In this document: in pieces, positions 5,783 to 16,516 of the stretch
How the letters are laid out: each line of letters starts with the position of its first letter
How positions within the stretch are numbered: position 1 is the stretch's first letter
Source: an uncultured Gammaproteobacteria bacterium
GTDB taxonomy: Bacteria; Pseudomonadota; Gammaproteobacteria; JABDGN01
DNA: 38,582 nucleotides
NCBI GenBank assembly: GCA_964456955.1
Contig: CAYWDC010000001.1
Location: 1-38,582, forward strand
Direction of reading: 5' to 3'
The notes under the pieces: model-generated
The model's input: only the letters and a program-made list of their open reading frames with translations
Told to the model about the DNA's origin: nothing
The model's database searches: none
Position numbers and translations under genes: made by a program

Positions 5783-6529
5783 ATGAAAATAAATGTACTA
5801 CAAATTACTGACTGCCATCTATTTGCTGACTCGACCCAGCAGCTAAGAGGTGTCGATACCGAGCAAAGTTTTTTACGGGTATTAGCAGCAATTTGTGCGA
5901 CCACAAGAACCCCAGACCTTATTTTATTAACTGGGGATTTGGCAGATCTGGGCGAAGCCGATGCCTATCGTCGTTTGCTGACACATTGTCAGCGATTGAC
6001 TTGTCCGGTTTTTGCAATCCCGGGTAATCATGACCAAGTGGCTGTGATGAAGCAAATATTCAAAGATAGCAAAATTTCCATGAATCCATCCTTTGTCCGA
6101 GGTGGCTGGCATGTTATTTTGTTGAATTCGGTAGTGCTAGGCGATGACGAAGGCACGCTTGCCCCGAGTGAATTACATTTTCTGCAAACAGCATTGACAC
6201 ATTATGCTACATTGCCAACATTGATTGCCTTGCATCACCACGTGAAACCCGTTCATGGTTATATGGATACGATGATGTTAACCAATGCTGATCTGTTTCA
6301 TGAGATTATCACAGCGCATAAGAGTGTACGTGTGGTGCTGTCTGGCCATGTGCATCAAGCTTTTGAGGAATCATGCAATCATGTAAGGTATCTCGCCAGT
6401 CCATCCACTTGTTTTCAAATTAAAGTCAATATTCCCGAATTTACCAAAGATGAAACATCGATGCCTGGCTATCGCTGGTTAGCATTATATGACGATGGTA
6501 AAATCGAAACCGAAGTGGTTAGGGTTTAA
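5783..6529 (+). CDS. cpdA: 3',5'-cyclic-nucleotide phosphodiesterase CpdA (metallophosphoesterase)
   Basis: Metallophosphoesterase motifs are present: ITDCHL, LTGDLAD, GNHD and SGHVHQ. I use ATG 5783 (MKINVLQITDCHLF). The track ORF starts at GTG 5687 and adds a basic, non-conserved 32-aa extension. The position after tolC matches the E. coli tolC / nudF-yqiB-cpdA-yqiA-parE neighbourhood. Confidence 0.85.
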   Translation: MKINVLQITDCHLFADSTQQLRGVDTEQSFLRVLAAICATTRTPDLILLTGDLADLGEADAYRRLLTHCQRLTCPVFAIPGNHDQVAVMKQIFKDSKISMNPSFVRGGWHVILLNSVVLGDDEGTLAPSELHFLQTALTHYATLPTLIALHHHVKPVHGYMDTMMLTNADLFHEIITAHKSVRVVLSGHVHQAFEESCNHVRYLASPSTCFQIKVNIPEFTKDETSMPGYRWLALYDDGKIETEVVRV

Positions 6530-6586
6530 TCGTTAATGCACCTGCGTGATATGGCCATGAAGTGGTAGAGTCAAATAGGAAGACTC

Positions 6587-6663
6587 ATGGCAAAAAATTA
6601 TAGTGCTAAGATATTGTAGTATTAAACGGTCTTGAACTGGTACAATGTCGTACTGGGTATGTG
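6587..6663 (+). pseudogene. parE: parE (topoisomerase IV subunit B) 5' stub, frameshifted and truncated
   Basis: Hand translation gives ATG 6587 MAKNYSAK, then a stop after two more codons. A shift of +1 at about 6610 gives DIVVLNGLELVQCRTGYV. Joined, MAKNYSAK/DIVVLNGLELVQCRTGYV matches the ParE/GyrB N-terminus (E. coli ParE MTQTYNADAIEVLTGLEPVRRRPGMY) at 11 of 23 aligned positions. No similarity continues past about 6663. The stub lies 58 nt after cpdA, where parE normally sits. Confidence 0.6.
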
Positions 6664-6700
6664 CTTCGACGCATCCAAATGTTCTTATGGCTACCCAGTT

Positions 6701-6718
6701 ATTTGTGAAGTCACAAAT
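6701..6718. promoter_or_regulatory. Perfect 18-bp palindrome ATTTGTGA-AG-TCACAAAT, a candidate operator upstream of the MFS gene
   Basis: Read directly from the sequence. The 8-bp arms are perfect reverse complements and lie 46 nt upstream of ATG 6764. An extended -10-like TGgTACAAT lies at 6638-6646. Confidence 0.35.
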
Positions 6719-6763
6719 CAGTTCATAATATTTTTATCTTGTAAAATCTAACAAGTCTATTTT

Positions 6764-8002
6764 ATGTCAATTAAAATGATAATCATTAGTGTCGCTGTTT
6801 GGCTTGTTGCCACAGTGTTTTATTCGTTGGATTACTTCCAGCATGCCTCCCCCAGTGTATTGTTAATGCCGATTGCCGTGTCGATGCATATGGATGTGAA
6901 TACTGTTGTCGGCGTCATGGCGATTTATTGGCCTGTGTATGCGATATCGCAGCTCCCGGTAGGTTGGTTGCTTGATCGATATGGTTACCAATGGGTCTTG
7001 CCGATTTGCTGCACGATTATGAGTGCGGCTATCGTTATATTTTCGCACATTCCGGTGCTACCTATCATGTGGTTAGCACGAATATTTATCGCCATCGGTT
7101 CTGCCGCCGCTTTTTTAGGGGTATTGAAAGTTGCTGCGATGATGCTGCCCAACTCTATTTTCCCTGTGGCGGTGGGGTTAACCAATACCATTGGCACGTT
7201 GAGTGCCATATTTGGCCAAGTGTTGCTAAGCTATGGTATTACACATTTGGGTTGGCAAAACGCATTGTCGTTGATTGGTTATTTTGGCTTAATATATGGT
7301 GTTGTGCTGTATCTTTGCTTGCGTATCAAGACGCAGACCAAGCATAGTAATATTTCGCGCAAATTATCTTTACAACATTTGGGTGTATTGCAGTCAAAAG
7401 AACTCTGGTTTATTGCCCTTTATGCGGGTCTTATGGTTGGCACGGTTGTTAATGCGTTTTCTGAGCTTTTTGATGTTGTTTTTTTACAATATACTTACCA
7501 CTTAACCGCTATAAAAGCCGCGTCAATCAGTTCCACTATATTTATTGGCATTGCAGTTGGCGGACCCAGTCATGGTGTGATTAGTGCGTTGATAGGTGGC
7601 AAAAAGCGATCGATGATCATTGCAAATCTGTTAACGATTGTCATTTTCGGTATCATTGTATTATTGCCTGCTGCACTGAGTGTGCTTTCTTTATATGTGC
7701 TCTATTTTTCTTTAGGCTTTTTTATTTCCAGTATGTTACTGGCTTTTTCAGTGGTCAATGATATTTTTCCCAATGAAATGCAAGGAACGGTGTTGGCAAT
7801 CGTGAACATGGTTATTGGTTTGTGTGCCGCTTTTTTTCAGCGCTTCATTGGTCATGTCAGTGCCTGCATCAATGGCGGTGACATTAAAATGATAAATAAT
7901 CCCCATGTTTTCACTTTATCGTTTATTTTCTTGTTATGTCCATTGATGTTAAGCTTTGTTTTATTATTATTTACGCGTACGCGTTATAAGGTCATGATTT
8001 AA
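6764..8002 (+). CDS. MFS transporter (12-TM type), substrate unknown
   Basis: 412 aa and highly hydrophobic, with about 12 predicted helices. The loop 2-3 region LLDRYGYQWV resembles the MFS signature. The specific subfamily was not recognised. Confidence 0.7.
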   Translation: MSIKMIIISVAVWLVATVFYSLDYFQHASPSVLLMPIAVSMHMDVNTVVGVMAIYWPVYAISQLPVGWLLDRYGYQWVLPICCTIMSAAIVIFSHIPVLPIMWLARIFIAIGSAAAFLGVLKVAAMMLPNSIFPVAVGLTNTIGTLSAIFGQVLLSYGITHLGWQNALSLIGYFGLIYGVVLYLCLRIKTQTKHSNISRKLSLQHLGVLQSKELWFIALYAGLMVGTVVNAFSELFDVVFLQYTYHLTAIKAASISSTIFIGIAVGGPSHGVISALIGGKKRSMIIANLLTIVIFGIIVLLPAALSVLSLYVLYFSLGFFISSMLLAFSVVNDIFPNEMQGTVLAIVNMVIGLCAAFFQRFIGHVSACINGGDIKMINNPHVFTLSFIFLLCPLMLSFVLLLFTRTRYKVMI

Positions 8003-8120
8003 ATACGCCAGATTAATTAAATGATCGGTTGGTTAACATTTTTAACTAAGATTGCAGATTTAAGTTTGGCTAAGTCTCGTTGTTAAATTGACTAGTATGA
8101 ATATATAAGACAAGGTTACT

Positions 8121-8470
8121 ATGACAGAATCGCAGCCGTTGCACCTGTTCACTGAGAAGGCGTATCTTAACTATTCCATGTATGTGTGATCCTCGATCGC
8201 GCCTTACCTCACGTTGGTGATGGCTTAAAACCGGTCCAGCGTCGCACTATCTATGCCATGTCGGAATTAGGTTTAAATGCGTCGGCAAAATATAAAAAAT
8301 CGGCACGCACCATCGGTGATGTGTTGGGTAAATTTCATCCGCATGGTGATAGTGCTTGTTATGAAGCCATGGTACTGATGGCACAAGATTTTTCCTATCG
8401 TTATCCTTTAATCGATGGACAAGGCAATTGGGGTTCACCCGATGACTCAAAATCATTGTCAACGGAATAG
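8121..8470 (+). pseudogene. parC: parC (topoisomerase IV subunit A) 5' fragment with a +2 frameshift, truncated
   Basis: ATG 8121 gives [22 protein letters not shown] then TGA. The frame starting at 8186 continues [89 protein letters not shown]. This is nearly identical to the E. coli ParC N-terminus, including the QRDR. An extra TG in GTGTG (8184-8188) breaks the frame. The fragment ends ...KSLSTE-stop, where ParC and GyrA carry KSxAAMRYTE with the catalytic Tyr. Confidence 0.85.
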
Positions 8471-8487
8471 ATAGGCAGTGGTAGTAG

Positions 8488-8516
8488 TTGACATTAGATG
8501 CCAGTAATCCTATTTT
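8488..8516 (+). promoter_or_regulatory. Candidate sigma70 promoter for ppc (TTGACA, 17 nt, TATTTT)
   Basis: TTGACA lies at 8488-8493, followed by a 17-nt spacer and TATTTT at 8511-8516, about 70 nt upstream of the ppc ATG. This is a sequence match only. Confidence 0.3.
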
Positions 8517-8586
8517 ACTATATTAACTGTTTTAGGGATTAACTAAATATTATAGTGGCAATTGAATAGAAAGGGAAAACCTTATC

Positions 8587-11205
8587 ATGGCAGCAATAAA
8601 ACGCACAATAAGCGATGACATCCATATCTTAGGCGATTTATTAGGACAGATACTGAGGCTGTATGAGGGAGAATCGACTTATGCCTTAGTAGAAAAAATT
8701 CGTATTTTATCAAAATCTTCGCGAGAATCTGAGAAAGATTTACAGACGTTGCATCGTCTCATTCATGATGTGCCAGACGACCTGACACCCCAGTTAGCAA
8801 GGGCGTTTGGCCAGTTTCTACATTTAGCTAATATTACTGAATCTTATGATAATCAACGGCAGTTACGCCAACAACCAGAACCTCTGATGGCTATGTTGCC
8901 TAAGCTGTTAAAAAAGAAACTCTCTGCTAAAAAGATTGCTAACGCCTTACGTGAGCAACAAATCGAATTAGTATTGACTGCACATCCTACAGAGGTCAAA
9001 CGTCGTACTTTGATTCAAAAGTATAGTTATATTGCTGGTTTATTAGAGCAACGTGATCGTATAGAAATGACGAAAGATGAGATTGCACATTGGCAAGATA
9101 AACTGAAAACAACAGTGAATGCTATTTGGTTAACCGATGAAATTCGTCGCGTTCGTCCCACCCCAGTTGAAGAAGCTAAGTGGGGATTTGCCATCATCGA
9201 GGATACGCTTTGGCATGCTATACCACAATATTTTCGGCAACTTGATGCTGCTATGCAAAAGTACTTAGGAGAAAATTTGCCGTTAGATTGCACCCCTATT
9301 CGAATAGGGTCTTGGATGGGTGGTGATCGTGATGGTAACCCTCACGTTACGGCGGCAGTGACTCAGGAAGTATTGCTACTCGCGCAATGGGTGGCTATGG
9401 ACCTTTATACACGAGAGGTTAATCACATGATACAGCATTTGTCGTTGCATGCATGTAACGAATCATTGCGCCAAAGTGTGGGAGAAACCTCTCAACCTTA
9501 TCGAGCGTGTCTGCGTATTTTACGCGATCGTTTAAAAGCAACAGGTGCTTGGTTACAATCCCAATTGGCTGGCCATACAATTGAGCCTAAGATGTCGTTG
9601 ATATTATGTCGTGAAGATTTATTGCAGCCTTTGATGCTTTGCTATCAGTCATTGTTAGATTGTAATGCAAGTGCTATTGCCAATGCTGACCTGTTAGATT
9701 TAATTCGTCGCGTACATGTATTTGGTATCTCGTTGATGCGTTTAGATATCCGCCAAGCAGCTGATTATCATACGGAAGCTATCGCTACCATTACAAATTA
9801 TTTTGGCTTAGGTAACTATGCAAACTGGTCAGAACAAGAGAGATGTTTATTTCTGCAACAAGAACTAGGCAACAAGCGATCTTTACCGTTAGCTGAGTTA
9901 ACCGTTAGTGAAAACGTTCAGGAGGTATTTGACACTTGCCTATGTATTGCAGCACAAAATCCTGACATCATGGGTGCTTATGTAATTTCTATGGCCAGTG
10001 CAGCGTCGGATGTTTTAGCCGTACATTTGCTGCAAAAAGTGGCGGGTGTGAAACAGCCAATGCGTGTGGTTCCGCTCTTTGAGACACTTGATGATCTAAA
10101 TCATGCTGCCGGTGTGATGCAAGCGTTATATAATATGCCGATTTATAAGAACATGCTAAATGGCCAACAGGAAGTTATGATTGGCTATTCAGACTCAGGT
10201 AAAGATGCCGGCAAGTTAGCCGCTAGTTGGGCACAATATGAAGCACAAGAACAGCTACTTCATGTATCGCAACAAGCAGACATACAATTGACTATATTTC
10301 ATGGTCGTGGTGGTTCAGTTGGTAGAGGTGGCGGGCCAGTGCATGCTACCTTACTGTCTCAACCGCCAGGTTCTGTACAAGGTCGCATGCGCGTAACCGA
10401 ACAGGGTGAGGTGATCCAACAGAAATATGGGTTGCTTACTTGGGCACAGCACAATCTCATGTTGTATAGTGTTGCGATGTTAGAGGCAACACTCATACCA
10501 CCGCCAGAGCCTAAACCAGAATGGCGTGAAATAATGGCTCAAATATCAGAAATTTCATTACATGTGTATCGAAAAATAGTGAGGGAGAATCAAGATTTTG
10601 TCACGTACTTTCGACAGGTAACGCCAGAACAGGAATTAGGTCGATTGTTAATTGGTAGTCGACCCAATAGACGTAAAGCAAAGGGTGGTATTGAAAACTT
10701 GCGTGCCATTCCTTGGGTATTTGCCTGGACACAAACACGCTTGATGTTACCAACCTGGTTGGGTATCGGCGAAGCATTAGACGCGTTATGGTCTAAGCAA
10801 AAAGATATGTTGTGCGATATGCTCAATGACTGGCCATTTTTCTCTGTGTTAATAGATATGCTTGACATGACGCTAACTAAGACTGACATTGATATTGCTG
10901 CTTATTACGATGCTTGTTTAGCAAGCCCGGAGACCAAAACATTTGGTGCCGATCTGCGTCGCCGGTTAAAACAGACCGAGGAGATAGTACGAGTCATTGC
11001 TGCCAATCAGACTTTTCAGGAACCGCAGCAGAACTTATATAAGTCTCTTAAGGTGCGTAACACTTATGCGGATCCGTTGAATTTCTTACAGGCGGAAGTT
11101 ATGAGGCGATTACGTCAAGGAAGGGTACATAATAAGGCAGCTTTGGAGGACGCATTGGTTTTGTGTGTCGCTGGGATTGCGGCAGCAATGAAGAATACGG
11201 GTTGA
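8587..11205 (+). CDS. ppc: Phosphoenolpyruvate carboxylase
   Basis: 872 aa and intact. Motifs are VLTAHPTEVKRRT, GYSDSGKDAG, FHGRGGSVGRGGGP and the C-terminal ...AAMKNTG, the canonical Ppc terminus. Confidence 0.95.
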   Translation: MAAIKRTISDDIHILGDLLGQILRLYEGESTYALVEKIRILSKSSRESEKDLQTLHRLIHDVPDDLTPQLARAFGQFLHLANITESYDNQRQLRQQPEPLMAMLPKLLKKKLSAKKIANALREQQIELVLTAHPTEVKRRTLIQKYSYIAGLLEQRDRIEMTKDEIAHWQDKLKTTVNAIWLTDEIRRVRPTPVEEAKWGFAIIEDTLWHAIPQYFRQLDAAMQKYLGENLPLDCTPIRIGSWMGGDRDGNPHVTAAVTQEVLLLAQWVAMDLYTREVNHMIQHLSLHACNESLRQSVGETSQPYRACLRILRDRLKATGAWLQSQLAGHTIEPKMSLILCREDLLQPLMLCYQSLLDCNASAIANADLLDLIRRVHVFGISLMRLDIRQAADYHTEAIATITNYFGLGNYANWSEQERCLFLQQELGNKRSLPLAELTVSENVQEVFDTCLCIAAQNPDIMGAYVISMASAASDVLAVHLLQKVAGVKQPMRVVPLFETLDDLNHAAGVMQALYNMPIYKNMLNGQQEVMIGYSDSGKDAGKLAASWAQYEAQEQLLHVSQQADIQLTIFHGRGGSVGRGGGPVHATLLSQPPGSVQGRMRVTEQGEVIQQKYGLLTWAQHNLMLYSVAMLEATLIPPPEPKPEWREIMAQISEISLHVYRKIVRENQDFVTYFRQVTPEQELGRLLIGSRPNRRKAKGGIENLRAIPWVFAWTQTRLMLPTWLGIGEALDALWSKQKDMLCDMLNDWPFFSVLIDMLDMTLTKTDIDIAAYYDACLASPETKTFGADLRRRLKQTEEIVRVIAANQTFQEPQQNLYKSLKVRNTYADPLNFLQAEVMRRLRQGRVHNKAALEDALVLCVAGIAAAMKNTG

Positions 11206-11349
11206 GGGCGGTAGTTGAGAAGGGAATATAATATTGTGTCCATATACCTCGATTTAAACTCATAGTTTCCAGTTTCGCTAAATAACATGCGATTTTATAG
11301 AGAATTGCTTCTGGTTAATAATATAAGCAAAAATACACCATAATAATGA

Positions 11350-11862
11350 GTCCGCAGTAATCTTAAATGGGGGCTGTCGATTATTGTTTACTCTAAAATC
11401 AGTTTTGCAAGGCACCCTGTATTGACCTCCATTACCCATTTAACTCAGAAAGTAAAAAGCATGACTTTACAAAATTTCAGGTTAACTCGTTTGGATAGCT
11501 AAATAAACCGACAAAGCCTAAATGTGATGAATCTAAATCTAGTGAATAATTACTCTAATCGTGTGGTGGTCACCAACACGGGATATTTGTTGCTGTTCGC
11601 AGTCAATGAACTGCCGCAATTGGCCAAGGGTAAAGGGAATAAGATGATCAATATTCCGATGGCAAAATACAAGGACAAAGAAGAATACATTGTCGATGTT
11701 GCGGTGTTGCACAGTAAGCAAGCATGAGTATTTTATTCTTGGAAACGGCAAATCACCTTAAAAGCAAAAGATCTGGCTCGTTATCTTGGGAAGCGTGGAC
11801 AACGTGGCAGCAAATTACCGCGCGGTTACCAGCGCGTAAGCCGCATAGCGGTCGTTGTGTAA
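11350..11862 (+). pseudogene. parC: parC 3' relic in a single frame with two in-frame stops
   Basis: The frame of ORF 11524..11727 reads NRVVVTNTGYLLLFAVNELPQLAKGKGNKMINIP. E. coli ParC has ITQAGRMLMFPVSDLPQLSKGKGNKIINIP. After TGA at 11725-11727 the same frame continues ITLKAKDLARYLGKRGQRGSKLPRGYQRVSRIAVVV-stop at 11860-11862, matching the ParC tail KLRPEELQKVTGERGRRGTLMRGLQRIDRVEI. Upstream, the same frame carries TAA at 11500-11502 and weaker ParC-like sequence back to the triple stop at 11341-11349. Confidence 0.8.
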
Positions 11863-12019: not shown

Positions 12020-12044
12020 ATTTTCATCTAGAGGATGACGGGTG

Positions 12045-12965
12045 ATGCAGCCGACAGCACATATTTGGCAAAATGGACAGTTTGTTCCTTGGCAAGAGGC
12101 CAACACACATGTGCTGAGCCATGGATTGCATTATGGTAGTGGCGTATTCGAAGGTATCCGTTGCTATGAAACCCCACAAGGTAGTGCCATCTTTAAGTTA
12201 GCTGCCCACGTGGCCCGATTAGTCTATTCAGCTAACGCCTTGGGCATGCAATTACCCTATAGTGAAGCTGAGCTGTGTCAAGCCATAACAGACACCGTGG
12301 CTAAGAACCGATTGCAGGCTGGGTACATCCGTCCGTTAGCCTATTATGGTTATGGTGCGTTGGGGGTCATGCCGAGTAAAGAGTTACCGATTGAAGTGGT
12401 TATTGCCTGCTGGCCTTGGGCAGACTACCTAGAAGCACCAGCCGTGGATATTAAGATCAGTGATTTTATTCGTATTCATCCACAATCAAGTGTTGCCGAC
12501 GCAAAAATTTGCGGTCACTATGTCAATAGCCTGTTGGCCCGCACTGCGCTTCGTGATACTCATTACCATGAAGCCTTACTGCTCGATCATGACGGTTTTG
12601 TTGCTGAAGGCAGTGCAGAGAATATCTTCATTGTCCGTGAAGGTCACCTGATCACCACGCCATTGGGCACCATTTTACCGGGTATCACCCGCGCCACGGT
12701 CATGGAGATGGCAGCAAACAGGGGATATGCGGTGAGTGAAGAGCGTTTCACACCCGCGGCGGTGCTGGCAGCCGATGAAGCCTTCTTCTGTGGTACCGCA
12801 GTAGAGATTGTGCCGATCCGCTCGCTCGACGACCAATTGATCGGCAATGGTGAGCCAGGACTCATTAGTCAGCAATTGCAACAGGCGTATCAAGCCATTG
12901 TCCATGATAAAGATGCCGATTTCATGGACGCCTTAACCAGGGTTAATTTCGTAGCAGGAGTATGA
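12045..12965 (+). CDS. ilvE: Branched-chain amino acid aminotransferase (fold type IV)
   Basis: 306 aa from ATG 12045, with GAGGA 9 nt upstream. The N-terminus IWQNGQFVPWQEANTHVLSHGLHYGSGVFEGIRCY, the later EGSAENIF and GITR are typical of IlvE. Confidence 0.9.
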   Translation: MQPTAHIWQNGQFVPWQEANTHVLSHGLHYGSGVFEGIRCYETPQGSAIFKLAAHVARLVYSANALGMQLPYSEAELCQAITDTVAKNRLQAGYIRPLAYYGYGALGVMPSKELPIEVVIACWPWADYLEAPAVDIKISDFIRIHPQSSVADAKICGHYVNSLLARTALRDTHYHEALLLDHDGFVAEGSAENIFIVREGHLITTPLGTILPGITRATVMEMAANRGYAVSEERFTPAAVLAADEAFFCGTAVEIVPIRSLDDQLIGNGEPGLISQQLQQAYQAIVHDKDADFMDALTRVNFVAGV

Positions 12966-13026
12966 ACGTATCAACAGAGTAGATTACGATTCTTGTTACT
13001 AGTAGCCTTGATAGAGATATAAGTAC

Positions 13027-14427
13027 TTATGGCCCATTGTTAGACAATTTGCTACGATTTTCTTCTAGGTAGGATAATAGTTTTGCCGTTGTAATGCTTA
13101 TTAATGCAATTAACGTAAATAATGAGCACATCAGTAAAACGTGGATAAGATTCGCCTGTGAAATTTTATAGATGGTATCATTTTTCACAATAGTGGTAGA
13201 TAATATGACACCGACTAAACTGCCTATTAAAGTACTCATATAAAATATTCCCGCCGCCATTCCTGAATGTTCTTTTTTCACTTCTTTGAGCGCTAAAATT
13301 ACTAGCGCTGATGATAGCAGACCGTAACATAGACCTGGGAAAATAAGTAACAGCATAATCTGATACGCCGATATATTGTGAGCAAAACTGAACACAAGAT
13401 ATAATATCGAAAAGCACAGGCAACTTGTAATAATAAAAGGCAGCTCTCCATATTTTTTAATTAAATGTCCACTGGTTGGGGCTATTATTCCTACGACAAT
13501 CGACATAGGAAATAGTAACAACCCTGATTTGATGAGTGAGAATCCCATATTGTTATTTAAGTACAAACTGATGATGTAAATAAAACTATAGAAACTCAAA
13601 TTAGTTAATATCCTCAATGCACAGCCTAAAAGAAAGGGCCTATTGGTTAAAATAGAGATGTCAAACAAAGGAGCTTTTGTTTTTTTCTCAGAGACGAAAA
13701 ATAGTACAAACAAAATAATCGATGCGGATAGCAGTAAAAATGCTACCAGCTTTCCGTGAGTCATTTGACTAGTAGTTAATATAGCCATGATTAATAAACA
13801 CAGTGATACGGCGAAAAGCATGAATCCAACAATATCAACCTGTTTTTCTGCTACCGTTTTTTTTATTTTAGGGCATACATAAACAGAAATAAGCATTAAT
13901 ACAGCCAAAGGGGCATCTATTAAGAAGAACCAGCGCCAACTGAAATAATTTACTAGAAAACCGGCGATTGCCGGCCCTACCGTCATGGAAATTCCCACCA
14001 TCCCAGTTAGTATGCCAAGTAAGAAGTGTTTCTTTTCCTCGGAAGCACTTTTGAGAATCACGGCCGTTGCATTTGGCAAGATCATACCGGCAGCCAATCC
14101 TTGCATTAATCGCGATATTATTAACTCACTATAAAGATAGCTGATACCAATAACAAAAGACGCAATGCCAAATGCCGCTAAACCAAGCGCAAGAAGTTTC
14201 TTGTTGCCATGAATATCGCCAATTTTCCCGGTCAATGCGATCGACACCGAGAATGTTAACAAGTAGCTTATATTGACCCATTCTATTTGTAAAAATGATA
14301 AAGCTAGTTCTTTCCCTAACGGCTGAATGATGATAGGCATGCCAGTGTAACCAATGCCGACAACTAAAATGGCGAGGAGCATTGAAAACAGCACGTAAAA
14401 ATAGGATTTTTTAATCATAATTAACAT
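13027..14427 (-). CDS. MFS drug/H+ antiporter, DHA2 (EmrB/QacA-like, 14-TM) family
   Basis: 466 aa with about 14 hydrophobic segments. The motif-A-like GKIGDIHGNKKLL after TM2 and the length fit DHA2. It is markedly AT-rich: a hand count of line 13501-13560 gives 33% GC, against 47% for a metK line. Confidence 0.7.
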   Translation of the reverse strand: MLIMIKKSYFYVLFSMLLAILVVGIGYTGMPIIIQPLGKELALSFLQIEWVNISYLLTFSVSIALTGKIGDIHGNKKLLALGLAAFGIASFVIGISYLYSELIISRLMQGLAAGMILPNATAVILKSASEEKKHFLLGILTGMVGISMTVGPAIAGFLVNYFSWRWFFLIDAPLAVLMLISVYVCPKIKKTVAEKQVDIVGFMLFAVSLCLLIMAILTTSQMTHGKLVAFLLLSASIILFVLFFVSEKKTKAPLFDISILTNRPFLLGCALRILTNLSFYSFIYIISLYLNNNMGFSLIKSGLLLFPMSIVVGIIAPTSGHLIKKYGELPFIITSCLCFSILYLVFSFAHNISAYQIMLLLIFPGLCYGLLSSALVILALKEVKKEHSGMAAGIFYMSTLIGSLVGVILSTTIVKNDTIYKISQANLIHVLLMCSLFTLIALISITTAKLLSYLEENRSKLSNNGP

Positions 14428-14573
14428 TATGGATTATAGCTGGTATTGATTCGATTGACAAAAGTCAGTGAATGAATAATTATGACTATTTTACCACTAT
14501 CTTGAACAACGGCATCCTACTAATGTAGGCAAAAAATACGGTATAATCTTGAAAAAATTGCTAGGAGTTGCCT

Positions 14574-15731
14574 TTGGTCAACTATCAACTGTTTACGTCG
14601 GAGTCAGTGTCCGAGGGGCATCCTGACAAGGTTGCCGATCAAATTTCCGACGCTATTTTAGATGCCATTATCGAGCAAGATCCGCAAGCACGCGTTGCCT
14701 GCGAAACGTTTACCAAGACGGGCATGGTGGTTGTTGGTGGTGAGTTATCGACCTCTGCCTGGGTGGACCTAGACGAGTTAGTACGTGATGTAGTCAATAA
14801 CATCGGTTACACTAGAGCAGAATATGGTTTAGATGCGATGTCTTGCGCCGTATTATCGGCGATTGGCAAGCAGAGTGATGATATTGCCCAAGGTGTCGAT
14901 GCCACGACATTACAGGGTATGGGCGCGGGTGATCAAGGCATGATGTTTGGCTATGCCAGCAACGAAACCGACGTATTGATGCCAGCACCGATCACCTATG
15001 CACATCGCTTAGTTGCACAACAGGCCAAGCTACGTCATCGGGGTGATCTTGCCTGGCTGCGTCCAGATGCAAAAAGCCAAGTCACTATCCGTTATGTTGA
15101 TGGCCAGCCAGTTGCCATCGATACGGTGGTATTATCGACACAACATGATCCCAATATTAAACAAGCGGAGCTGGTCGAAGCGGTGCGCGAAGAGATCATT
15201 AAGCCAGTGTTGCCAGAAAGATGGCTCACCACAGCAACCAAGTATTTTGTCAATCCGACCGGTCGTTTTGTTGTTGGAGGGCCACAAGGTGACTGCGGTT
15301 TGACCGGACGTAAGATTATCGTTGATACCTATGGCGGTATGGCTCGTCACGGTGGCGGTGCATTCTCTGGTAAGGATCCGTCAAAGGTCGATCGCTCAGC
15401 CGCTTATGCTGCCCGCTATGTGGCAAAAAATATTGTTGCCGCGGGACTTGCCGATCGATGTGAGATTCAATTGTCTTATGCTATCGGCATGCCAGAGCCG
15501 ACATCGATTAGCGTTGATACCTTTGCTACCGGAAAAATTACTGATGAGCAAATTGTCGAGTTGGTGCGAGAAAATTTCGATCTGCGCCCTGGTGGTATCA
15601 TTACCATGCTCGATTTATTAAAACCAATTTATCGGCCGACCGCAACCTATGGTCACTTTGGTCGTGAGCAAACGACTTTTACCTGGGAAAAAACCGATAA
15701 AGCACAAATCTTGCGTAACGCAGTAAAGTAA
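14574..15731 (+). CDS. metK: S-adenosylmethionine synthase
   Basis: [33 protein letters not shown] and the [23 protein letters not shown] motifs are present. I place the start at TTG 14574, 6 nt after AGGAG (14563-14567), which gives an N-terminus of the same length as E. coli MetK. The track ORF starts at TTG 14568. TATAAT lies at 14542-14547. Confidence 0.95.
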
Positions 15732-15775: not shown

Positions 15776-16516
15776 TTAGAAGAATTGATATAATCGTGTT
15801 TGATATCTACTATCATGTGTATCATATTGGTATATAATATCGTTTTTCTTGACTGACAGATTAAAGGGGGGCGATGTTAGTTCAACTCCACTATCAATAC
15901 AAAAGCGTGTACTAGGGCCGGTGATAATATCAATGTTGGCTATGAAGTGGTCTTTTGGTAGACATTCCGTAAAAATAAGATAGCGATATTGTTCAAGTTT
16001 TGGGATAATTTTTTGGATATCTTGGTTGGACAGATGCTGTAGTACTTGCCGTAAGCATACGACATCTCCTTTGGGCAGTGGATCTTCAATGATATTTAAC
16101 ACTCGGAAATCTACATCAGTACCCTTAAATTTTTCTTGATTTCGTTTAATAAGAGACTCAACAATGTCGCAAGCGATATATTCTTTACAGAAAGGGTAAA
16201 TTTGTAAACCAACAGCGAAATCACCACAGCCAAGATCGACTAGTTTTACTTTTTTATCGAATTTCCTCAGAAAATTTTTAACAGAATTTACATATCCGTT
16301 TACCAATATGGAGTCATGGGAACCTGGTCCAGAATAAAAATCTTTTTTAGAAGTGGGTTTTCCCCAAAAATTTTCTTTGTATATTTTTGTAAAAACTTGT
16401 TGTGTACTAAGTTTCTTAAATTTCCTAAAATTATATTTAGTTATAAGTACTCTTATAATTTCTGCAACCCAATTGGGCAAGATTCTTTTTGCAAGTTTCC
16501 TAATATCCCATTTCAT
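15776..16516 (-). CDS. Class I SAM-dependent methyltransferase, orphan, substrate unknown
   Basis: 246 aa. Motif I is VDLGCGDF, followed by an acidic residue after beta-2 (ACDIV) and then VVCLRQVLQHL (motif IV-like). It is very AT-rich: sampled lines gave 18% and 42% GC. Confidence 0.7.
   Translation of the reverse strand: MKWDIRKLAKRILPNWVAEIIRVLITKYNFRKFKKLSTQQVFTKIYKENFWGKPTSKKDFYSGPGSHDSILVNGYVNSVKNFLRKFDKKVKLVDLGCGDFAVGLQIYPFCKEYIACDIVESLIKRNQEKFKGTDVDFRVLNIIEDPLPKGDVVCLRQVLQHLSNQDIQKIIPKLEQYRYLIFTECLPKDHFIANIDIITGPSTRFCIDSGVELTSPPFNLSVKKNDIIYQYDTHDSRYQTRLYQFF

Follow-up and report, generated by a model that had tools for sequence, protein, structure and literature searches.

The window, by which we mean the whole stretch of 38,582 nucleotides that was analysed, is the largest contig of a metagenome-assembled genome of an uncultured gammaproteobacterium (970 kb in 193 contigs, 82% complete), and the parC, ppc and parE features described below lie on its + strand. 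Positions 8121-8470 correspond to ParC residues 1 to about 112, the quinolone-resistance region (QRDR) included. An ATG at 8121 opens the parC frame, in which codons 1-22 are followed by a premature TGA at 8187-8189 (8121-8189; seen in the translation and matching positions 12-37 of an HMM built from the ParC proteins of ten relatives). Codons 23 to about 114 are read in a shifted frame (8186-8461), ending in GSPDDSKS(LS), and the frame that starts at 8186 stops at 8468-8470. The stretch 8186-8461 matched positions 33-127 of the ten-relative HMM with 211.7 bits and positions 18-112 of TIGR01062 in the profile search, and tblastn comparisons gave 79-84% identity across 92-96 aa.

An earlier, sequence-only reading had taken this piece for a parC 5' fragment, interrupted by a TG insertion at 8184-8188 that gives a TGA at 8187, and both statements held. 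Joined across the shift, the 115 residues matched the NCBIfam model TIGR01062 (parC_Gneg) at positions 2-111 of 735 with 218 bits (218.4, E = 1.5e-64), a match that is far beyond chance and that beats every GyrA model. At the slip site the DNA reads ATGTATGTGATC in the relatives and ATGTATGTGTGATC in the window, a difference of exactly one TG, added to a short TG run (GTGTG, 8184-8188), which produces a +2 frameshift. The same reading had placed the end of similarity just short of the active-site tyrosine. The alignment with the ParC orthologues of the ten relatives, in which the extra TG and the loss of AAMRYTE are both seen, agrees: the ten relatives go on as DDPKSFAAMRYTE (KSFAAMRYTE), whereas the window has DDSKSLSTE and a stop, diverging after KS. 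All the coordinates that had been given for the fragment were correct when the sequence was read again.

The left junction (8456-8470), located by DNA and protein comparison with the relatives, consists of the last homologous codons and a non-homologous tail, L-S-T-E followed by TAG, and the divergence point in the DNA falls between AAATCATT and GTCAACGGAATAG. The homology breaks 4-5 codons ahead of the catalytic tyrosine of AAMRYTE, Tyr120 in E. coli ParC, and this motif is missing from the window. No significance is evident in the position of the break beside the catalytic residue.

A search of the whole genome with TIGR01062 detected a second parC piece on the same strand at 11518-11847 (model positions 624-734, E = 2.2e-24), with one in-frame TGA. 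The borders of both pieces were set with the ten-relative HMM, according to which the 5' homology ends at nucleotide 8461 (position 127) and the 3' homology starts at nucleotide 11527 (position 642). So delimited, the 3' relic (11527-11862; ten-relative HMM positions 642-752, 120.3 bits) comprises roughly the final 110 codons of the C-terminal domain, with the in-frame TGA at 11725-11727 and the native stop at 11860-11862, and it is up to 65% identical to the ParC of genomes from the same family. No resemblance to ParC was detected in 11206-11530 in any forward frame (z <= 1.3). An extension of the relic back to about 11350 was considered and rejected, with z <= 1.3 in three frames and an HMM envelope reaching only to 11446, and a minus-strand peptide, EAILYKIACYLAKLETMSL, at 11255-11311, which resembles ParC 421-439, was taken as a chance match (E of about 2).

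The two pieces are collinear and co-oriented, and between them about 514 central parC codons have been swapped for 3,065 bp (8462-11526). The loss covers model positions of about 113-623, and with them the active-site tyrosine, the tower, the dimer gate and half of the C-terminal domain. Both pieces are homologous to ParC by TIGR01062, but the score of 218.4 bits stands against a cut-off of 628.9, about 220 of the 735 positions are represented (a full-length protein has about 735-750 aa), and the reading frame is interrupted by the +2 frameshift, the 3,065-bp replacement and the TGA at 11725. The parC of this genome is a pseudogene with three independent lesions (the extra TG, the central replacement and the TGA at 11725), and it is unable to work as a member of the ParC family. 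Gene callers annotate a 94-aa 'DNA_topoisoIV' and a 66-aa 'DNA_gyraseA_C' here, and both are pieces of this one pseudogene.

The replacing segment, delimited by the HMM borders, starts with a 125-bp leader (8462-8586), which contains the region's best sigma-70-like site (TTGACA-17-TATTTT, 8488-8516, 10/12 positions, a consensus match only), 70 nt 5' of an intact ppc gene. This gene (8587-11205) encodes a phosphoenolpyruvate (PEP) carboxylase of 872 aa and is full length, matching positions 2-898 of the 898 of NF000584 with 1023.7 bits, above the cut-off of 815. The remaining 321 bp of the segment have no recognisable content. Neither direct nor inverted repeats, nor a tRNA, nor IS ends were found at the borders, and the segment has no second copy in the genome. 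The only Rfam match, to AfaR, reached 22 bits where the gathering score is 100, and is a chance match. The segment is not recognisable as an IS, a transposon, an integron cassette or a genomic island, and the neighbouring genes all have housekeeping or transport functions.

Among 5.8 billion proteins, the nearest relative of the inserted PEP carboxylase (P0006, 74% identical) belongs to a distant gammaproteobacterium, whose FolD, RpiA and InfA are just 57-64% identical to those of the window's genome. Further matches were at 58-59%, followed by Pontiella and other Kiritimatiellota at about 55%, and by Pseudomonas at 51%. By comparison, genomes of the same family have FolD proteins that are 61-69% identical, and either no PEP carboxylase or one that is only 32-35% identical. 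In a maximum-likelihood tree the window protein grouped with P0006 (SH-aLRT 100) and then with P0007 and P0008 (99). All four fall in a clade (97) in which just Pontiella, a Verrucomicrobia isolate and Lentisphaera are named, and which is set apart from that of Pseudomonas/Halieaceae and distant from the PEP carboxylases of the family itself. The latter, from two of the same-family genomes (G004 and G001; loci L022 and L023), form a very divergent pair with a branch length of 2.85, and four other genomes of the family gave zero ppc matches. Because it is 74% identical to the protein of a distant gammaproteobacterium and only 32-35% identical to those of its own family, the ppc of the window is, as judged from these comparisons, a xenolog of the family's gene.

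At the locus of P0006 (L031) ppc lies between tsaB and a 2OG oxygenase gene, with parC absent nearby, and its flanks have no homology with those of the window ppc except for a few bases past the stop codon. The composition of the window gene equals that of its host (GC 43.2% and GC3 36.8%, against 42.6 +/- 3.4% and 38.3 +/- 4.8% for the long ORFs of the genome), the GC3 of the P0006 gene is 58%, and the terminal branch of the window ppc is long (0.37). Host-like composition together with a long branch is more easily reconciled with a long stay than with very recent transfer, and it sits awkwardly with the fresh parC remnants described below unless the donor had a similar composition or the gene moved within the genome. 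Either ppc came from a compositionally similar donor, or it resided elsewhere in the genome before entering parC.

The structure of the locus was compared with contigs from five other public assembly records, which match the window gap-free and at least four of which cross each junction. Two of them, L032 (JGI 3300033127) and L033 (ENA ERZ23486806), run gap-free across both junctions, differing from the window by 2-3 SNPs; L046 (ERZ27295575) and L047 (ERZ27234785) cover 5988-8555 at 100% identity, the TG included; and L034 (ERZ27295575) and L035 (Logan SRR10694899) begin at 8547 and extend through ppc and the right junction to include the TGA. The slip site is spanned by L032/L044, L033/L045, L046 and L047, and the TG is present in every one. 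As the supporting assemblies may share libraries (the fragment ends of L046 and L047 are identical), they were counted as at least two independent data sets. Three SNPs, at 9561, 9573 and 9588, split the assemblies into two haplotypes; all are synonymous third-position changes in ppc codons 325, 329 and 334, a cluster that could reflect either purifying selection on ppc or a short recombination tract. Whichever the haplotype, every assembled contig that reaches a junction or a lesion agrees in structure.

These comparisons bear on the possibility that the pseudogene is an artefact, with a contig that is a chimera at the borders of ppc or with an erroneous TG, the true parC being contiguous and intact. 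The genome is indeed metagenome-assembled and fragmented, and 8547, a position within the left flank of the insert, is the exact breakpoint of two public assemblies. A candidate alternative left junction at 8547 was nevertheless rejected, as the 42 foreign bases found there are Nextera adapter and, within one library, the partner contig ends at 8555, with a 9-bp overlap. An overlap of 9 bp is the product of a single Tn5 staggered cut, so that the overlap at 8547-8555 supports adjacency rather than a break. The parC pieces, moreover, flank ppc in the correct order and orientation, whereas a chimera would not come back to the same gene; both junctions are crossed by L032 and L033, the left one also by L046 and L047 at full identity, and the TG site is gap-free in all four; the independent nonsense codon of the 3' piece is present in all five sequences; and the composition of ppc is that of the host genome. 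We regard an artefact as very unlikely. The contigs of ERZ27295575, ERZ27234785 and SRR10694899 end at Tn5 cut sites (5988 and 8547-8555), and adapter sequence stands at the starts of two of them (L034:1-42 and L046:1-21); contigs that carry adapters and are limited by fragment ends look like the product of a low-input library.

In the family relative G001 metK directly follows parC, and this metK is 79% identical to the window metK (14568-15731); in the relatives parE lies on the same strand, 0.3-8 kb upstream of parC. The synteny of parC and metK with G001 indicates that the relic stands at the ancestral locus, and the conserved neighbours of a unitary pseudogene are present on both sides, with metK downstream and parE, here a putative relic, upstream. 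The latter is a probable start of parE at 6575-6657, of about 26 codons, located in a 234-bp spacer directly after cpdA: it opens with MAKNYSAK, undergoes a 1-nt shift, and reads DIVVLNGLELVQCRTGYV where the ParE of G001 has MAQDYSAQDIEVLSGLEPVQRRPGMY. Its best single-frame local score was 45, compared with 23.9 +/- 3.5 for shuffled sequences, and this score was reached by 1 of 1000 shuffles and by none of 1500 random pieces of the genome (p of about 0.001); the HMM match had an E value of 0.02 in 746 aa. The remainder of parE is missing, an intact gene for an MFS transporter stands at 6764-8002, and no relic of the parE 3' end was found between this gene and parC (7990-8125).

Between the parC relic and metK (12042-14427) the window carries ilvE (GC 50%, 365 bits) and a DHA2-type MFS efflux gene (GC 36.6%), both absent from this place in G001; the locus has taken up several genes. 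Beyond metK, at 15776-16516, lies a methyltransferase-like ORF with a GC content of 33% and a GC3 of 26%, against 42.6% and 38% for the genome. The parC of another relative, G002, is directly preceded by a gene for 'mobile mystery protein B' (TIGR02613, 251 bits; L014:11047-11661), and the neighbourhood of parC varies across the family.

Among the pre-junction residues that are invariant in the ten relatives, 2 of 76 are changed in the window (I42T and P109S), and the same leave-one-out count gave 0-4 changes for the intact relatives. About 17 of the approximately 19 differences from the relatives, as counted from the alignment, fall in the 35 variable columns. Differences that lie mostly at variable columns are the mark of purifying selection and not of neutral drift, so that the neutral period has been brief. 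In the 3' relic the conserved LP.L.KGKGNK and LPRGYQ blocks are retained, with one invariant Gly changed in addition to the stop. The sequence-only reading had argued for recent inactivation from the near-intact state of the 5' piece, and these counts support it: the inactivation of parC looks recent, and since the remnants are barely decayed, the loss would be recent relative to the divergence of the genus. In the set of 5.8 billion proteins the best matches of the N-terminal fragment were 88-93% identical, which is the usual level of conservation of this region, and the best match of the C-terminal relic in the JGI metagenomes was 60% identical; no genome of the same genus was found in a set of 199,900 species.

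The good preservation of the 5' piece, which has changed at invariant residues no more than the intact relatives have, could also mean that selection keeps the remnants, either because ppc now uses the promoter and 5' region of parC as its own promoter or leader, or because a useful 94-codon peptide is made from the GTG at 8186. It is true that ppc follows the piece directly, on the same strand, and that gene callers annotate a 94-aa product of the piece. A leader constraint, however, would not keep amino-acid identity; the strong promoter-like site lies inside the insert, between the fragment and ppc; the fragment is frameshifted and has neither the catalytic tyrosine nor the tower nor the dimer gate; and the 3' relic is as recognisable in spite of its position downstream of ppc. 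We give such a function very little probability, and prefer the reading in which the remnants are fresh because the loss is recent.

The topoisomerase genes of the 970-kb assembly were inventoried by profile searches. GyrA is full length (1224 bits) and TopA was detected with 817 bits, while GyrB is represented by its C-terminal half only (570 bits, NF011501 positions 395-803), cut by a contig end, which shows that the bin is incomplete. No other parC or parE was found in this 82%-complete assembly: PF00521 otherwise matched only GyrA, and TIGR01055 matched nothing but the GyrB C-terminal half at the contig edge. Likewise, no topB was found in the assembly, TopA being the only type IA topoisomerase detected. 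The TopA and GyrB results concern contigs C128, C76 and C107. The best named relatives of the GyrA protein are a Legionellales metagenome-assembled genome (71%) and Legionella (68%). The GTDB order consists of seven genomes, and all six others have an intact parC.

In most gammaproteobacteria the main decatenase is topoisomerase IV, which is also a target of fluoroquinolones, and in this class the enzyme is normally essential. It might accordingly be thought that the organism retains the enzyme through a second functional parC and parE, duplicate or xenologous, situated in the unassembled portion of about 18%. An assembly that is 82% complete, in which the essential gyrB is just half present, leaves room for such genes, and very fresh remnants are what would be expected if another copy had taken over. 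On the other hand, there is no further ParC or ParE match in the 970 kb, the relics of both subunits stand at the ancestral locus, and the relatives have a single parC each. Among the 5.8 billion proteins, too, the identity of intact ParC to the N-terminal fragment did not exceed 93%, and in the JGI metagenomes, the sample of this very contig included, the identity of ParC to the C-terminal relic did not exceed 60%. We consider a retained topoisomerase IV unlikely; with parC and parE relics both at the ancestral locus, an organism without topoisomerase IV is the simplest reading.

Taken as a whole, we hold it to be highly probable that parC is a recently inactivated pseudogene at its ancestral locus, with three lesions and an inserted ppc, next to a nearly erased parE, and topoisomerase IV would have been lost, with gyrase as its substitute. 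The sequence-only reading, though right, covers one third of this whole. The extra TG may have arisen through replication slippage. The ppc segment would have come by horizontal transfer, or by relocation of a copy acquired earlier, and would have entered via illegitimate recombination, possibly followed by deletions that trimmed it. With parE also cut down to a relic of some 26 codons, topoisomerase IV would no longer be made, and gyrase, possibly together with Xer/FtsK, would unlink the daughter chromosomes, as in other slow-growing bacteria that have no topoisomerase IV.

More tentatively, the genome may belong to a Legionellales-like gammaproteobacterium caught just after the loss of topoisomerase IV, with both genes hollowed out at their ancestral locus and an intact gene now in each gap, an MFS transporter gene in parE and a xenologous ppc in parC; we regard this as a possibility with the balance against it. 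If true, the centre of a normally essential gene would have been replaced in one step, by homology-facilitated illegitimate recombination, or, alternatively, a locus newly free of selection would have served acquired genes as a landing pad. A further consequence would be that unlinking of chromosomes by gyrase only can arise fast in a clade that otherwise keeps topoisomerase IV. A lineage with both subunit genes freshly dead, set against an order that keeps parC, offers a natural before-and-after comparison, which could reveal what allows gyrase or Xer/FtsK to take over unlinking in a shrinking genome.

The pseudogene resembles the ParC family (TIGR01062; PF00521 and PF03989) in its N-terminal 112 residues, the quinolone-resistance region among them, in the last 110 or so residues of the C-terminal domain, and in its position by metK and downstream of parE, as in the family relatives. 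It differs from the family in being frameshifted, in having lost positions of about 113-623, in the nonsense codon of its tail and in a score below the cut-off.

Bacteria in which topoisomerase IV is naturally absent and gyrase is relied on include Helicobacter pylori, Campylobacter and Mycobacterium tuberculosis (PMC3325230), as well as Deinococcus radiodurans (PMC4863600). The genome described here shares with them an intact gyrA (with a partial gyrB), no working parC or parE found in the assembly, a small genome (estimated at about 1.2 Mb, with assemblies of 1.2-2.2 Mb in the family) and probably slow growth. In those bacteria, however, the genes are simply absent, whereas here the wrecks of both appear to be readable at the ancestral locus; parC is kept by the six other genomes of the order; and topB was not found in the assembly, while H. 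pylori has a Topo III homologue (PMC3325230).

A literature search for parC pseudogenes in endosymbionts found nothing relevant. As in the pseudogenes of reductive evolution in general, a decayed parC is accompanied by an intact gyrA, close relatives still have parC and the genome is shrinking; unlike in these, the centre of the gene holds an intact metabolic gene, apparently acquired horizontally, and the remnants are almost undecayed. The decay of parC is ordinary reductive evolution caught early, gene decay and bacteria without topoisomerase IV both being known kinds of event, and the combination of fresh remnants with a gene-for-gene replacement makes this locus a tidy example rather than a surprise.
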